A DNA stretch of 64,000 nucleotides from Nannocystis bainbridge (GTDB taxonomy: Bacteria; Myxococcota_A; Polyangia; Nannocystales; Nannocystaceae): NCBI RefSeq assembly GCF_028368995.1, contig NZ_JAQNDL010000003.1:1696001-1760000 (forward strand), given 5' to 3'. Position 1 is the stretch's first letter, and each line of letters opens with the position of its first letter. Below are positions 1 to 6,060 of the stretch, one piece after another. The position numbers and the translations under genes were made by a program. Below the pieces are notes generated by a model, which made no database searches, was not told the origin of the DNA, and saw nothing but the letters and a program-made list of their open reading frames with translations.

Positions 1-1145
1 GCCGTCCACGCGTGGTCCTCGTCGTCGCCGCCGAGCGTGTCGATGTCGATCCGCAGGTCCTCGACCCCGACCTCGGTCACCAGCCCCGCGCGGTCGGCCC
101 TGTACACGTACGCCTGCGACAGCGCGCGATCGAGGTGGTTGAACACCGGCGCGTCGACCGTCAACGCCGGCCCGTCGATCGCCATGACCTGCCGCTTGAA
201 CACCAGCGGCTGCGAATCGACAGTCCACGGCCCGTCGGCCCCGGTGCCGCCGTGGTCGACCGCGGCCAGCCACGCCTCGGTGCACGGGTGCACGATCACC
301 ACGTGATCGCCGACCGCGTAGAGCGACGGGTCGGCGACCTCGAAGGTCCGCGCCCCGACCGGCACCCGCGCGCTGACGATGTCGCTGCGGCTGTTCGGAA
401 GCTCGGGCTGCCAGCGATCGTTGTCCCCGCTGCCGACCACCAGCACCGGGCGCTGGTGCGGCTCGTCGCCGATCGCCCGCAAGATCGTGCTGGTCGCCGG
501 ATCGTCGCCGTCGCCCGCGCCGCGCAGCACCACCCCGCTGTGCCGCAGTCGCACGGTGCCGTGGATCTCGTACTCGCCGGGTCCCAGCAGCACCGCGCCG
601 CGCAGGCCGTCGACCCCGGCCGGCATCGCCCCGAGCTCGTCGATCGCCTGCTGCAGATGCTCGGTGTTGTCGCCGGCGACCGGGCCGATGCCGAGCACCG
701 TCGGCACGTCGGGGATCGGCGCTTCGCTGCGGTGATAGCCGGCGTAGCTGAAGTCGGCGATCCGGTTGTCCTGCTCGTCGGCGACGTAGGTCAGCGCGTC
801 GTCCTCGACCGGCACGATCTGCGAGGTCCAGCTGCCCGGCGGCTGCGCGAGCGGCGGAGGACACTGCGCGGCGCCGGTGGTGCTGTCGTCGCCGGTGCTG
901 CTGTCCGTCGCCGCGCCGCCGAGGTCGGGCGCGGGCGCTCCGGTCGACGTGCCAGTGATCGTGACGACGCCATCGGTCGGGTCGGTGCCGGTGGTCGGCG
1001 CGCCGCCGGTGCCCGTCGTCCCGGTGGTCGTCGTCGTCGTCTCGCCGCCGCTGGTGCCGGTGGTCGCGCCGCCGCCCGCAGGACAGGCGGTGACCGCCGT
1101 GAGGAGGATGCCGCCCAACACAGCGCCGCGGACCGGGATCGTCAT
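1..1145 (-). CDS. Secreted lipoprotein with Thr/Gly-rich linker and pectate-lyase-like (beta-helix) domain; runs off the window
   Basis: ATG at 1145 reads MTIPVRGAVLGGILLTAVTAC (lipobox-like), then a T/G/D-rich linker, then DFSYAGY...DNTEHLQQAID...GAVLLGPGEY...SGVVLRGAG, typical of pectate_lyase_3-like N-termini. Absent from the ORF track because there is no stop in the window. Confidence 0.75.
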   Translation of the reverse strand, partial: MTIPVRGAVLGGILLTAVTACPAGGGATTGTSGGETTTTTTGTTGTGGAPTTGTDPTDGVVTITGTSTGAPAPDLGGAATDSSTGDDSTTGAAQCPPPLAQPPGSWTSQIVPVEDDALTYVADEQDNRIADFSYAGYHRSEAPIPDVPTVLGIGPVAGDNTEHLQQAIDELGAMPAGVDGLRGAVLLGPGEYEIHGTVRLRHSGVVLRGAGDGDDPATSTILRAIGDEPHQRPVLVVGSGDNDRWQPELPNSRSDIVSARVPVGARTFEVADPSLYAVGDHVVIVHPCTEAWLAAVDHGGTGADGPWTVDSQPLVFKRQVMAIDGPALTVDAPVFNHLDRALSQAYVYRADRAGLVTEVGVEDLRIDIDTLGGDDEDHAWT

Positions 1146-3099
1146 TGGTAGATCCTACCCTTCCTCTGCTTGAGCCGGAGGAAGGGCAGGACCCCCGTTC
1201 AAACCGTGCATGCGGATTTCCCGCACACGGCTTACCGGTGGTCTCTCGAGCCGCCGCATTACGCGGCCTCCGGGTACTGCACGGTCCCCCGTAGACGGTG
1301 GAGACCGTGGTTGTGGAAGAAGTCGCGCGTCCAGCTCTCGACCTCACCTGCGCGGAGGTGCCGGCCCTTGCGCCTCATCATGAAGCGACGAAGGCGAGAC
1401 CACACGTAGGTGTCGATCCGGTTGAATTTCACGGCGGCGTTCCCGGTGCGGAAGTAGTTACCCCAGCCACGCAGCACCGGGTTGATGTCACGGATGATCA
1501 CCCGCACATCTTTGGCCCCGTTGCGGTTCGAGCCGGTCAGCTCCTTCACGCGCTGCCGCGCCCGCGTCATGCTACGCGTCGAGGGCCAGCGCTGGAGGAA
1601 GTACACCCTGCGATGTTCCTTCTCCCAGATCGGCCCGGACATGCGCTTGCGCAGGTGGCAGCCGAGGAAGTCGAAGCCTTGCCGTCCCCAGCTCAGCTCG
1701 ACTCGCCTCGTCTTCTCGGGATGCAGTTCCAGCTTGAGACGCCGCAGGATCTCGCGGACCCTGACCTCGGCCTCCTCGCACGCCTTCCTGGTCCCGCACA
1801 GGATCACGAAGTCGTCGCAGTAGCGCACGAGCTCGCCCAGATGGGCGTGCCGTCGCTGCCACAGCTTGTCGAGGACGCCGAGGTAGATGTTCGACAGCAG
1901 CGGTGAGATCACGCCGCCCTGGGGTGTCCCCGAGAGCATCGCCGTCACCTGGCCGTCTTCCATCACGCCGGCTTCGAGCCATTGCCGCACCAGCTTGAGG
2001 ACCCTTCGATCCGAGATCCGCATCTCGACGAGCTTCATCAGTCGCTCGTGATCGATGCTGCCGAAGTAGTCGCGGATGTCGGCGTCGAGCACATGGTTCC
2101 CACCTCGAGCTCCCAGCACGCGCAGTCGCTCGAGCGCCTGCGTCGCGCTGCGCTTCGGCCGGAAGCCGTACGAGCACGGAAGGAAATCCGCCTCGAAGAT
2201 CGGCTCCAGCACCAGCTTCGCCGCCATCTGCACCACTCGGTCCCGGACTGTCGGGATCCCCAGCGGCCGCTTCTTCCCGTCCGCCTTCGGGATGTACCGC
2301 CGCATGACCGCGCTCGGTCGGTATGTCCCGCCCTTGAGTTCGTCGGCGATCTCTTCGAGGAAGCGATCGACGCCGTACTGCTCCACCTCGGCCAGCGTTT
2401 GTCTGTCGACGCCCGCTGCCCCCCTGTTCTTCTTGACCCGCCTCCATGCTTCCTTCAGGACGTCACGCCTGAAGATGCGGTCGTACAGCGCATGGAAGCG
2501 TCGACCCGGTTGCCGCTTGGCTGCGGCCCACAGTCGGCGTCGAAGTTCTCGCACTTTGTCACGCGGCCTGCGCCGCGTGGGGTGGTTGGGACCTGTCCTG
2601 CAGGCCATGCCCTCGCGCTTACCTTCTTCTCCGACACGACCACCCCAGGGGTCCTTCCCTCCGACGGCGTTGTTCTGCGCCGCCATCGCCGGTACTACGA
2701 CCCCCTCGGACTCCCGCTGCACAGCGCTCGACTTCGCCTTCGGCTTATACGAGTCGCATCGCCCCGACACGGGCCGTGCAGACGGGCCTCTCCTGTTCCG
2801 CATCGCTCCTTGAACGCGTGCTGCGCCCCATACCCCGGGAGGACCCATCGCGCTTTCTGCTCCGGATGACTGCGCGGTGGGCGTGGCCTTCGCCGTGAGA
2901 TGAGCGGCTCGGCTCCCCCATTGTTCATCTGTCGAGGCTGCAGGCTTCACTTGATGTTGCGGCCCGCGTTCTTGCTCCCTCCGCAGAGGCTCTTGACGCC
3001 CCGCTCGGGCCGCGAGAATCTCTCCTCGCGCCTGGGGCCTGCTACCGGGCGCTCCGGCGCCTACCCGGGCGGGACTTTCACCCGCTGGAACGGTGCAGC
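1144..3099 (-). mobile_element. Group II intron (IIB-like ribozyme, RT/maturase without endonuclease domain)
   Basis: Domain V AAGCCGTGTGCGGGAAATCCGCATGCACGGTTT (1233-1201, AGC triad), long domain VI hairpin ending ...CTACCAAT (1144), GGGTGAAAGTCCC motif near the 5' end and an internal RT ORF. 5' boundary most likely 3099; the alternative is the GTGCG at 3157. Confidence 0.9.
1259..2608 (-). CDS. ltrA: Group II intron reverse transcriptase/maturase
   Basis: [61 protein letters not shown] and domain X ([12 protein letters not shown]). Likely start ATG 2608 after GAGGG; the frame stays open up to 3160. Confidence 0.95.
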
Positions 3100-3278
3100 A
3101 TGACGCGGCCGAGCCGCCCCCTCCGGGGCCGAGCTCGTCCGCGTCGTCAGGACGCACCATCGAGCCACGCTATCAACCGCCCCGGCGCCGAACAAGGCGC
3201 GCGCCTGCTCGCTGGCTGGGGGCGCGGGTCCGCCGAGGTCGTCACGCGCATGCCGAGGACGCACACCTCGCGCGCAAT

Positions 3279-3338
3279 CACATGTCCGATCGACCATGCT
3301 CGACACGACATGTCCTCATGGACATGTCCTAAACGACA
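3279..3338. repeat. 14-bp-phased TGTC-N6-GACA array (4 units)
   Basis: TGTC 3283, TGCT 3297, TGTC 3311, TGTC 3325; GACA at 3307, 3321, 3335. Confidence 0.85.
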
Positions 3339-3672
3339 TAAAATGCGCGAAGCCGATCCTGCACCCGGGTCGAGGTTCGGGACCGCCCGCGCGTTGGCTC
3401 CCGGTGGGACCGCCGCACCGTCCGGCCGCGCGCGAGCGGGGTCCTCGCGGATGAAATGGCGGGCAGGGGTGTGGGGTAGATCTCCGCGGCGCCAGCCCTG
3501 GGCGCCGTTCGGCGGGGTCGTTCGTTCGCCCGACAGGAGCAGGTCCGACGCAGCCCGGCAGGCCGGGTCGGGCTCGGGCTAGTATCCTTGTCACGTGCGC
3601 CGGACCGCCGCCGACCCGACCTGACGCGCGCTCCTGCGACCTCCCACCGCGCCCCCCTCGCGGCCCTCGACG

Positions 3673-6060
3673 ATGTCCCCTCCCAAGATCCCCTCCGTGG
3701 TGGTTCGCGGCCTCGAGCCCGAGGCCGCGGTCAGCTCGATCGCGCGCGACCGGCCGTCCCAGCCGCCGTGGTCGCGGATCTTGCTCGGCCTCGCGGTCGC
3801 GGGGCCGGCGCTGTGGCTCGGTGGGGTGCCGTCGATCGTGGTCCCGGGCTTCTGCGCGCTGGTGCTGGCGCTGTGGATCCGCCTGTGCACGCGCAGCGAG
3901 CAGCCGCTGCGCGTGCCGTCGGGCGCCTTCATCGGCCTGTTCGCCGCCGGGCTGACGCTGCTGCAGTGGATGCCGCTGCCGCTGTTCCTGCGCGAGCTGG
4001 TGGCCCCGGGCCTGACCGCGCGGGTCGGCGCGGCGCTGGCCGACAGCGGCGCGAGCCCGTGGCCGGGGCTGTCACCTGTCCCCGGGGACAGCGCGCTGGA
4101 GGCCGCGCGCCTGCTCGCGCTCACCGGCCTGTTCGTCGGCGCGGCCCAGCTGTCGTGGCGCGTCAGCGCCGGCCTGGTCGCGCTGGCCGGCTCGCTGGTG
4201 GCGCTGATCGGCCTGGCGCAGGCGGCGTTCGGCCTCGAGGCGATCTACGGGCTTTATCAGCCGCTGCAGGTCGACCCGACGGTCACGCCGGCGCTGCTGA
4301 CGACCTTCGTCAACGCCAACCACCAGGCCGGCCTGTTCCTGCTCGGGATCTTCAGCGCCGGCGCGCTGGCGGTGCACATGCGGCTGCAGGGCCGCACGGC
4401 CACCGACCCGGCGCTGGTCAGCCGCCTGCGCGAGCGCCGATTGGCGGCTCTGGCGGCCCTGGCGATCCAGGGCGCGGCGCTGCTGCTGTCGCTGTCGCGG
4501 GCGGCGATCGTCGCCCTGGCGATCGTCGCTCCGGTGGCGCTCATGCTCGCCTGGCGCAACGGACCTGTCCCTGTGGGCAGGTCGCGCGCGCGCGAGCCGG
4601 AGGGCCGGCTGTGGCTGCAGCGCGGCGCCCTGGCGCTCGGGCTCGGACTGCTCGCGGTGGTGGTCGCGCGCCAGGGCGCGTGGGCCGAGCTGTCGACGCT
4701 GTGGCGCGTCAACGAGGCCGAGACCAAATTTCGCATCGCCTCCGACGCGGTGGCGCTGATCGATCTGTCGCCGGTGCTCGGCGTGGGTCGCGGCGCCTTC
4801 CTCGACCTGTTCCCCGCGGTCGACTCGCGCCCGCTCGGCGTGGTCCACACCCACCTCGAGTCGGCCCCGGCGGCGATGCTCGTCGAGTGGGGCCCGGTCG
4901 GCGGCGGCCTGGTCGCGCTCGGCCTCATCTGGTGGTGGATCGCCGCCGTCTACACCACCGGCAGCGGCCGCCACGTCAGCGCCCGCCGGGTCGCCCTGTG
5001 CGGCCCGCTGGCCCTGGCGATCCACAACCTCGCCGACTTCAACCTCGAGTTCCTCGGCGTCGCCGCGCCGCTGTGCGCCCTCGCTGGCGCGCTGTCCGAG
5101 CGCCGCGGCTTCTTCCGCGCCCCGGCCCGCCCGGCCATCCTCGTCGGCGGCCTCAGCCTCGCCGGCGCGGCCGCGCTGGCGCTGTGGGCCCAGCCGTACA
5201 CCTGGCAGAACCGCACCGCCGGCGACGGGGCGATCGGCGCCGGCGACATGTCCCCCGAGGCAGCCCAGCGGATGCGCCCGCTCGACGCCTCGCTGCACAT
5301 CCTGCTGGCCCAGCGCGCGCTCGAGATCGAGGACTGGGCGCAGGCGCGGGCGCAGGCGACGGTGGCGAGCGAGCTGCAGCCGGCCAACTCCGACGCGTGG
5401 CTGCGGCGGGCCCACGCGGCGCGCGAGCTGGGCGACGCGTCCGAGTCGGCGAGCTCGCTGGCGCGGACGCTGGCGACGATGCGCCACCCGCCCGACCTCG
5501 AGCTGACGCGCTACCTGCTGGGCCGCTACCCCAACGCCGAGGAGCTGGCGCCGTTGATGCCGCAGGAGCTGGCGCCGTGGACCGCGGTGATGGAGTCGCT
5601 GATCGCCGAGGCGCCGGCCTACGCGGCGATCCTCGCCGCGGCACGCAGCCAGGTCGACGGCCGCGAGCCGCCGGTGTTGCACATGCAGGTCCGCCTGGCC
5701 CTCGCGCTCGACAACCCGTCACTCGCGCTGCACTACGCCCGCCTGCTCCGCATGCTCGCGCCGCACGAGGTCCACAGCCACCTGCTGCTGGCCCGCGCGC
5801 TCGAGAGCCAGCGGGTCCCGCGCGAGCGCGAGCTGCAGCACGACCTCGAGGAGGCGCTCGCCCAGGGCCTCGTCGCCGAGCCGGCCCACATCGCCCTGGT
5901 CGAGGAGAAGCTGCTCGGCTCGTACCTGCGCGACGGCCAGCCCGACGCCCTCGCCCGCGCCCGCGACCTGCTGCCGCGCCTGCTGGCCCGACCTGGCGAC
6001 CGCGCCGCGCTGCAGCGCCGCCACGCGCTCGAGCGGGCCCTGGCCCAAGCTGTCCGCTAG
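3673..6060 (+). CDS. O-antigen ligase (Wzy_C)-like membrane protein with C-terminal TPR-like helices
   Basis: Multiple TM segments, TFVNANHQAG, LSLSRAA, PVLGVGRGAF and HTHLES motifs; helical repeat C-terminus. Confidence 0.8.
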   Translation: MSPPKIPSVVVRGLEPEAAVSSIARDRPSQPPWSRILLGLAVAGPALWLGGVPSIVVPGFCALVLALWIRLCTRSEQPLRVPSGAFIGLFAAGLTLLQWMPLPLFLRELVAPGLTARVGAALADSGASPWPGLSPVPGDSALEAARLLALTGLFVGAAQLSWRVSAGLVALAGSLVALIGLAQAAFGLEAIYGLYQPLQVDPTVTPALLTTFVNANHQAGLFLLGIFSAGALAVHMRLQGRTATDPALVSRLRERRLAALAALAIQGAALLLSLSRAAIVALAIVAPVALMLAWRNGPVPVGRSRAREPEGRLWLQRGALALGLGLLAVVVARQGAWAELSTLWRVNEAETKFRIASDAVALIDLSPVLGVGRGAFLDLFPAVDSRPLGVVHTHLESAPAAMLVEWGPVGGGLVALGLIWWWIAAVYTTGSGRHVSARRVALCGPLALAIHNLADFNLEFLGVAAPLCALAGALSERRGFFRAPARPAILVGGLSLAGAAALALWAQPYTWQNRTAGDGAIGAGDMSPEAAQRMRPLDASLHILLAQRALEIEDWAQARAQATVASELQPANSDAWLRRAHAARELGDASESASSLARTLATMRHPPDLELTRYLLGRYPNAEELAPLMPQELAPWTAVMESLIAEAPAYAAILAAARSQVDGREPPVLHMQVRLALALDNPSLALHYARLLRMLAPHEVHSHLLLARALESQRVPRERELQHDLEEALAQGLVAEPAHIALVEEKLLGSYLRDGQPDALARARDLLPRLLARPGDRAALQRRHALERALAQAVR

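Follow-up and report, generated by a model that had tools for sequence, protein, structure and literature searches.

We analyzed a group II intron in a 64,000-nucleotide (nt) stretch of the genome of Nannocystis bainbridge (assembly GCF_028368995.1, contig NZ_JAQNDL010000003.1, positions 1,696,001 to 1,760,000 of the forward strand; hereafter, the window) and compared it with related introns of other genomes; loci and genomes are designated below by L and G numbers, respectively. Comparison of these sequences indicates, with a probability of about 0.78, that introns of this lineage home to the boundary separating the first two codons in genes possessing a leaderless-type promoter. The window copy interrupts a lipoprotein gene on the minus strand directly behind its start codon. 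A preliminary description of the window, made from the sequence alone, had placed the intron inside the start codon (AT^G); insertion at the start codon held true and proved to be general in the lineage, while the position within the codon did not, since covariation of exon-binding site 3 (EBS3) favors ATG|ACG. The window genome was 11.05 Mb in length and consisted of 5 contigs. The host locus comprised the following features:

1143..3157, minus strand: group II intron (Rfam, copy alignment; the insert is missing from orthologues)
3158..3160, minus strand: host start codon ATG, the end of the 5' exon, which forms intron-binding site 1 (IBS1) together with G3161 (copy flanks, intron-free orthologues, EBS1 covariation)
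3167..3172, minus strand: -10-like hexamer TAGCGT (TAnnnT), located after TGA (extended -10 TG) and separated from the ATG by 6 nt (comparative data)
3190..3195, minus strand: -35-like hexamer TTGTTC, 17 nt upstream of the -10-like hexamer (sequence; conserved in L051, L052, and L054)
1143..1145, minus strand: intron-borne ATG, formed by the final three intron bases; in the unspliced RNA, it shares the frame of the host open reading frame (ORF)
3..1142, minus strand: 3' exon, the host ORF from codon 2 (MTIPVRGAVLGGILLTAVTAC...), with a lipoprotein-type signal and a VTAC lipobox recognized by eye, running off the window start

Matches to the lineage were found in 20 of the 73 genomes of the same order that were searched, and at least 120 loci were revealed when a named genome collection was scanned for a pattern of 16 letters representing the 5' junction. 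For a match to count as a verified intron, alignment to domain I of the window intron had to cover at least 60 of the 460 nt downstream; this BLAST-based filter replaced the first one, based on a regular expression, by which 14 of the 120 listed loci had been flagged as intron 5' ends. Pattern matches failing the domain I alignment served as controls (n = 93), and junctions with less than 40 nt upstream or less than 120 nt downstream were dropped from introns and controls alike. Among the matches listed, to which all counts of verified junctions and controls refer, 40 junctions were verified: the 3 copies of the window genome and 37 elsewhere. All of them directly followed ATG (30) or GTG (10), so the other copies sit at start codons, as the preliminary description's claim of an intron bound to this position required. 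CTG or TTG preceded GTGCG in none of the 40 introns versus 42 of the 93 controls. In 35 of the 40 introns, but in only 2 of the 93 controls, a TAnnnT hexamer preceded the start codon at a distance of 4–9 nt (6 nt in 25 introns and 7 nt in 6), a pattern characteristic of leaderless genes. Members of the lineage were found in records titled Myxococcota (Nannocystaceae, Sandaracinaceae, Myxococcaceae), Acidobacteriota, Nitrospirota, Gammaproteobacteria, Trueperaceae, and Eisenbacteria.

Intron-free orthologues of the lipoprotein gene were identified in three genomes of the same genus. Each contains TTGTTC, 17 nt, TAGCTT (L051, L054) or TAGGTT (L052), 6 nt, ATG, and codon 2, in this order. The distance between a -10 element and the +1 position is known, and it puts the start of transcription on the first base of the start codon. 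With this spacing, the inferred transcription start coincides with the host start codon, so that the 5' exon in RNA would consist of AUG only; the lipoprotein gene seems to be transcribed without a leader, with the A of ATG as the predicted start. A strict sigma-70 consensus scan of positions 3100–3400 returned no promoters, and the promoter reading is therefore based on the comparative data. In the window genome, start codons located 6 or 7 nt past TAnnnT were 2–3 times commoner than those at other spacings, and 66% of them opened an ORF of at least 150 codons versus approximately 33% at other spacings; such a combination of preferred spacing and ORF enrichment is the signature expected of many leaderless genes.

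TAnnnT-N6 might instead be a DNA element recognized by the intron protein or by an EBS2 that escaped detection, having no relation to a promoter and lying in front of ordinary genes with leaders. We consider this very improbable: free variation at the three central hexamer positions is unlike what base pairing would impose, ORFs with signal peptides start at the exact codon and leave no space for a Shine–Dalgarno (SD) sequence, ORF starts devoid of introns show an enrichment of this geometry throughout the genome, and the orthologous empty sites retain the -35/-10 spacing, even if the negative promoter scan would fit such an element.

Several observations weigh against homing to leaderless starts. 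The 40 verified junctions include related copies and are not fully independent, and 5 of them lack a perfect TAnnnT. The window hexamers TTGTTC and TAGCGT are weak, and the strict scan of 3100–3400 was negative. Neither a contig joining the two exons nor a mappable transcript start was found among the assembled contigs of public runs, a result that has no bearing on expression or splicing. Among the copies compared for exon pairing (see below), L037, L090, and L043 have a mismatch at exon position -4, and L028 and L029, 2 of 17 copies, have a mismatch at EBS3.

Two further observations concern the target sites and the public data. In copy L027 (G037), one of the 5 junctions lacking a perfect TAnnnT, the 5' flank looks like the antisense of the start of another gene (the reverse of ATG TCC ACC ...) and has no TAnnnT; this copy shares CCTGGCGGC-GTG with the target of a sister copy, and similarity of sequence may have led it to insert off target. 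One contig of public run X5 ends at 3159, where the repeat copies diverge.

The boundaries of the intron were derived from two further full copies in the window genome (99% identity), the three copies being aligned with their flanks. The shared stretch starts with GTGCG (3157) and ends with CCAATG (1143), and the flanks diverge at 3160/3161; in each of the three copies, ATG stands before the shared stretch, and an ORF in frame with the terminal ATG follows it. Excision of 3157–1143 gives ATG-ACG-ATC, the same arrangement as in the intron-free orthologues. The preliminary description had proposed an intron spanning 3099–1144 with a non-canonical GCUGC 5' end, inserted in an ATG made up of AT 3101–3100 and G 1143. 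Deletion of 3099–1144 does give ATG-ACG-ATC in the window; however, position 3099 lies 58 nt inside the element, since all three copies share the sequence from GTGCG at 3157, and the real 5' end is the canonical GUGCG. The 58 nt upstream of 3099 are identical in the other two copies of the genome and conserved in relatives, and 3157–3100 is also missing from the intron-free orthologues. The supposed AT|G at 3101–3099 is an internal CATG, 56–58 nt into the intron, between the 5' hairpin and the basal stem of domain I, in which GCUGCAC (3099–3093) is occupied by pairing with GUGCAGC (2722–2716). This anatomy, whose probability is negligible, was rejected on the basis of the three-copy flank alignment and the intron-free orthologues.

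The origin of the two codons bordering the intron is evident from the L008 copy, found in a relative at a GTG start. Its occupied site reads GTG[GTGCG...CCAATG]GCC, and three orthologous empty sites contain TAnnCT-N6-GTG-codon 2 only; thus, the 5' codon belongs to the host, and the 3' ATG was brought by the intron. The terminal codon is constant within each intron subfamily (ATG; GTG in the L009 group and in L136), while the 5' codon follows the host gene. The earlier proposal that the 3' end of the intron supplies the downstream gene with an ATG was correct in substance, but the G of this ATG (1143) is most likely not an exon base, the entire ATG 1145–1143 being intron-borne.

Start codons of the same genes are occupied by other introns as well. 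In a fourth orthologue of the lipoprotein gene, L053 (G035), another intron of the family was found at the same codon, and in L182 (G036), an orthologue of the host gene of L008, the start codon is likewise occupied by a different intron subfamily. The introns at L053 and L182 represent a different subfamily (with another domain VI, or of the GTG-ending type) in a second species, which suggests either that these sites were invaded more than once or that ancient insertions have diverged over time.

Exon-binding sites were analyzed in an alignment of 8 diverse copies and in a table of all copies. In the window copy, they are located as follows:

2896..2904, minus strand: EBS1 loop, CUCAUCUCA (covariation)
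2830, minus strand: EBS3, the U within GGGGUA-U-GGGG (covariation with the first base of the 3' exon)

The EBS1 bases C2902-A2901-U2900-C2899 pair with G3158-U3159-A3160-G3161, and U2903 is likely the delta position. Copies with EBS1 CAC were found at GTG starts in 5 of 5 cases, and copies with CAU were found at ATG or GTG. The fourth base of EBS1 and exon position -4 form C:G in the three copies of the window genome, G:C in most others, and U:G in the L009 group. U2830 (EBS3) pairs with A1142, which is the first base of the 3' exon and the first base of codon 2. This pair is formed in 15 of 17 copies, with all four Watson–Crick types present; shuffled data had a mean of 6.6 pairs, and 15 pairs were attained in 0 of 100000 shuffles. 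A sixteenth pair is present in L104. The EBS1–IBS1 and EBS3–IBS3 pairings of group II introns are thus present in the lineage according to the covariation tables and the shuffle test. The RNA contacts comprise only about 5 bases, with approximately 4–6 base pairs of IBS1 supported. We failed to find a convincing or covarying EBS2 when domain I loops (e.g., 2880–2860) were compared with exon positions -5 to -16 by eye, with no systematic search.

Since EBS3 covaries with the first base past the terminal ATG, the 3' splice site is placed after the G of this ATG. Judging from this pairing and from the empty sites, the junction is most likely ATG|ACG (CGAUG|ACG in RNA) rather than AT^G, and the spliced junction GUCAU|GACG expected in the preliminary description was disfavored also by copies at GTG starts, which end in ATG though their intron-free orthologues have only GTG. 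Group II introns have the 3' end consensus AY, and the end given by EBS3 covariation and the empty sites, AAUG (UG), does not conform to it; moreover, TG is common to both ends, so flank comparison by itself cannot separate ATG|ACG from AU^G. Both points count against the proposed junction. A cut inside the codon would have the 5' exon end in AU or GU, the intron run as G-GUGCG...CCAAU, and the exon G complete both ATGs. It is compatible with the flank comparison owing to the shared TG, would restore a canonical AY 3' end, and has a precedent in Avi.groEL, located between positions 2 and 3 of a stop codon (PMC12584367, in the available part of its text). We nevertheless regard such a cut as improbable: the base covarying with 2830 is the one past ATG and not the invariant G, the intron would have to begin with GGUGCG, no exon base would be left to pair with the C of CAY, and the bulged A would be merely 5 nt from the end. 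The covarying base would then occupy exon position +2, and we know of no group II contact with this position.

The terminal ATG (1145–1143) opens the lipoprotein ORF, and AGGA (1156–1153) lies 7 nt upstream of it, as had been read previously. The case for AGGA as an SD sequence appears weaker than supposed: AGGA is paired, forming part of the 3' strand of the domain VI helix, and is absent from at least one relative, L077, which ends in AAUUUCUACCAAUG. Both facts speak against it, and its function as a ribosome-binding site is doubtful.

The association with -10-like hexamers may result from active targeting or from selection after insertion. In the window genome, 57030 G-RTG-A sites are present, only 125 of which have the hexamer at 6–7 nt, and 3 of 3 copies are located at such sites. 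According to the selection explanation, the intron inserts at any N-RTG-N that fits EBS1 and EBS3, but copies persist or spread only at leaderless starts, where the gene remains functional and the intron is expressed. The short RNA recognition of about 5 bases, the failure to find EBS2 by eye (no systematic search), and the location of copy L027 at a non-promoter-like site agree with this explanation. It is, however, unlikely to suffice: neutral intergenic sites are estimated to exceed leaderless starts many-fold, yet 35 of 40 junctions have the hexamer, and dead-end copies should remain visible in genomes. Since hexamer-bearing sites are rare among G-RTG-A sites and neutral sites are estimated to be far commoner than leaderless starts, more than selection appears to direct integration. 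Active targeting, for example, to DNA opened by RNA polymerase at the promoter, has even or slightly better odds on these sequence counts.

As the covariation shows, EBS1 (CAU or CAC plus one base) reads the start codon and the preceding base, and EBS3 reads the first base of codon 2. In the mechanism that we propose, transcription would start at the host start codon, the 5' exon in RNA being AUG alone, and the inserted intron would capture both the promoter and the start codon. Ribosomes starting at the host start codon would, in most lineages, read domains I–III in frame into the reverse transcriptase (RT) gene. Splicing would restore pppAUG-ACG, and the host gene would be read leaderless; translation of the unspliced RNA could instead begin at the intron-borne AUG, perhaps aided by the AGGA of domain VI. 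The interrupted host gene is probably still readable. A more specific version, offered tentatively and with considerable reservation, assumes a fourth target specificity, namely, integration at +4 of leaderless promoters, where the sense strand, exposed around +1 to +3 in the open complex of RNA polymerase, would pair with EBS1 (CAY); the intron would capture the promoter and the start codon, translate its domains I–III as the N-terminus of the RT, and return a terminal AUG, with a natural 5' exon of one codon.

The intron occupies the minus strand from 3157 to 1143 (2015 nt), extending from GUGCG to CUACCAAUG. In addition to the exon-binding sites, the following ribozyme elements were recognized:

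3102..3145, minus strand: 5'-subterminal hairpin GACGCGG...CCGCGUC, 44 nt, placed like subdomain Ia (covariation)
1201..1233, minus strand: domain V (Rfam RF00029 and fold)
1147..1196, minus strand: domain VI with the candidate branch point A1149 and AGGA 1156–1153 in the 3' strand (fold)

Rfam covariance models matched the core of domains I–IV and domain V, by which group II introns are generally recognized: D1D4-4 (RF02003) at 3087–2952 on the minus strand (80.6 bits, E 6e-17, gathering score of 49), D1D4-6 (RF02005) at 2939–2832 (47.6 bits, slightly below the gathering score of 49), and the domain V/VI family RF00029 at 1235–1132 (42.4 bits, gathering score of 40). Together with the RVT_1 and GIIM domains of the encoded RT, these matches bear out the earlier recognition of a minus-strand group II intron. 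The Rfam alignment of domain VI extends into the exon, so the 3' end is not fixed by this alignment. The 5' end GUGCG (3157–3153) agrees with GUGYG, and the sequence common to all copies begins there. The bulged A1149 of the domain VI fold is 6 nt from the end at 1143, in comparison with the usual 7–8 nt, and we accepted it as the bulged A of this domain. The fold of domain VI had an energy of -61.4 kcal/mol (z -6.0), and none of 200 shuffles was as stable. The stem of the 5'-subterminal hairpin covaries and its loop varies among relatives; the hairpin is 26 nt long in L094 and L136 and absent from L059. The size of the ribozyme is approximately 665 nt.

The coding part of the intron comprises two nested features:

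1259..2608, minus strand: RT/maturase of 449 amino acids from the internal ATG 2608, with YCDD at 1822–1811 and a stop codon at 1261–1259
1259..3160, minus strand: open frame of 633 codons from the host start codon through domains I–III into the RT gene

The RT contains PF00078 (RVT_1, 9.5e-34) and PF08388 (GIIM, 1.4e-16) and matches TIGR04416 with 421 bits at a cut-off of 300; an endonuclease domain was not found in it by the domain search. Among PDB structures, RTs of group IIC introns (7uim, 6ar1) scored 1.6e-54 versus 4.4e-50 for T.el4h, which makes them the best matches only marginally and does not separate the classes. The active site has YCDD (1811–1822) in place of the usual YADD.

Upstream of the RT match, the frame of the host start codon has no stops in the window copy, versus 3 and 6 in the other two frames; neither this frame nor the promoter-proximal, leaderless context had been noticed in the preliminary description. 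The frame is also open in the distant relatives L012, L073, L136, L077, and L087, where the other frames have 4–12 stops and RT identity to the window copy is 57–73%. This includes L077, with a G+C content of only 57%, and L012, whose insertions and deletions relative to the window copy (18, 6, and 24 nt) are multiples of three. Against a role of this frame, it is broken in L011, L094, L059, and L090, and a 1-nt deletion breaks it in L036 and L037; the fusion route is, therefore, not essential. The internal ATG 2608, which is the alternative start (449 amino acids), was retained in 8 of 8 aligned copies. The chances that a fusion protein of 633 amino acids is made from the host start codon are about even.

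ORF-less derivatives were also found: L041 (897 nt), L020 (618 nt), and L104 (about 746 nt) retain both ends and the position at the start codon. Two metatranscriptome contigs skipping 1244–2605 and 1244–2686 were considered as possible products of the window copy and rejected, being ORF-less relatives and not the result of its splicing.

Among known group II introns, those most similar in their relation to translation signals belong to a specialized IIB1 lineage found at initiation and termination codons, with Avi.groEL and EcKTE56.groEL (3228 nt) as members; according to the available part of PMC12584367, which describes the work of Michel et al. 2007, these introns have an insertion of 300–700 nt at the base of domain I and a CL1-type RT and reside in proteobacterial housekeeping genes, and how they colonize start and stop codons is described there as unknown. 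Introns of both lineages lie at or beside a start or stop codon and put their own sequence in place of the codon they interrupt, which lets the unspliced gene retain a signal. Both also have an additional element where domain I begins, shortly after the 5' end; here, it is the covarying hairpin 3145–3102. This hairpin is, however, 0–44 nt long in the window lineage (44 nt in the window copy) in contrast to 300–700 nt. The IIB1 lineage is described as homing to one gene, whereas the window lineage occurs in many unrelated genes of several phyla, with lipoproteins and assorted ORFs as hosts instead of proteobacterial housekeeping genes. Unlike the IIB1 introns, insofar as their description goes, the window lineage has a -10 hexamer beside the start codon, and it follows a whole codon and ends in its own ATG. 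The window intron also differs in its length of 2015 nt and in an RT without an endonuclease domain.

The last feature is shared with group IIC introns, as is the use of many genomic sites that have a functional DNA motif in common and no long homing sequence. The lineage apparently also resembles them in a very short recognition by IBS1 and IBS3 (no EBS2 was detected here by eye, with no systematic search). Group IIC introns follow the hairpin of a terminator or attC, whereas the window lineage follows a -10 hexamer and a start codon, and a scan of 3100–3400 revealed no terminator-like site. At about 665 nt, the window ribozyme also exceeds the 412 nt that the available part of PMC3753933 gives for a IIC intron.

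A continuous frame from the upstream exon through the ribozyme domains into the RT gene has parallels outside bacteria. In the yeast mitochondrial introns aI1 and aI2, translation of the protein continues from the upstream exon without a change of frame. In the window lineage, by contrast, the exon supplies one codon only, in bacteria and in a leaderless context, and the continuity is lost in some relatives. No account of leaderless targeting by group II introns was found in our literature searches, whose coverage did not include subscription journals.

The target specificities of bacterial group II introns listed in the available part of PMC4424553 are homing sites, terminators, and attC; if correct, targeting of leaderless starts would be a fourth one. 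The lineage is a tractable case, having short RNA contacts set by covariation, dozens of target sites, and a promoter element at a fixed distance. It raises the questions of whether transcription initiation complexes guide the integration of retroelements, whether three bases of 5' exon are enough for a group II intron to splice, and whether a catalytic RNA doubles as a coding sequence in bacteria; promoter-guided integration, the one-codon 5' exon, and the translated ribozyme are put forward here as proposals. For genome annotation, it matters that the intron puts 2 kb between the promoter of the host gene and the true start of that gene and that the 633-codon ORF can be miscalled.

Some minor observations concern the neighborhood of the intron and the genomes. 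No family match for the host lipoprotein ORF was found in Pfam or NCBIfam. The window genome (G000) showed a strong excess of ATG/GTG 6–10 nt past TAnnnT followed by long ORFs, amounting to about 1500 sites after background subtraction, which suggests that a large share of its genes is leaderless. A 131-nt fragment (G000:C5:495445-495575, L004) matches a portion of the intron's domain I with 88% identity and is probably what remains of a further copy in this genome. On the plus strand of the window, an ORF of 795 amino acids with many hydrophobic segments (3673–6060) is divergent from the lipoprotein gene, so the spacer 3161–3672 would be a divergent promoter region.

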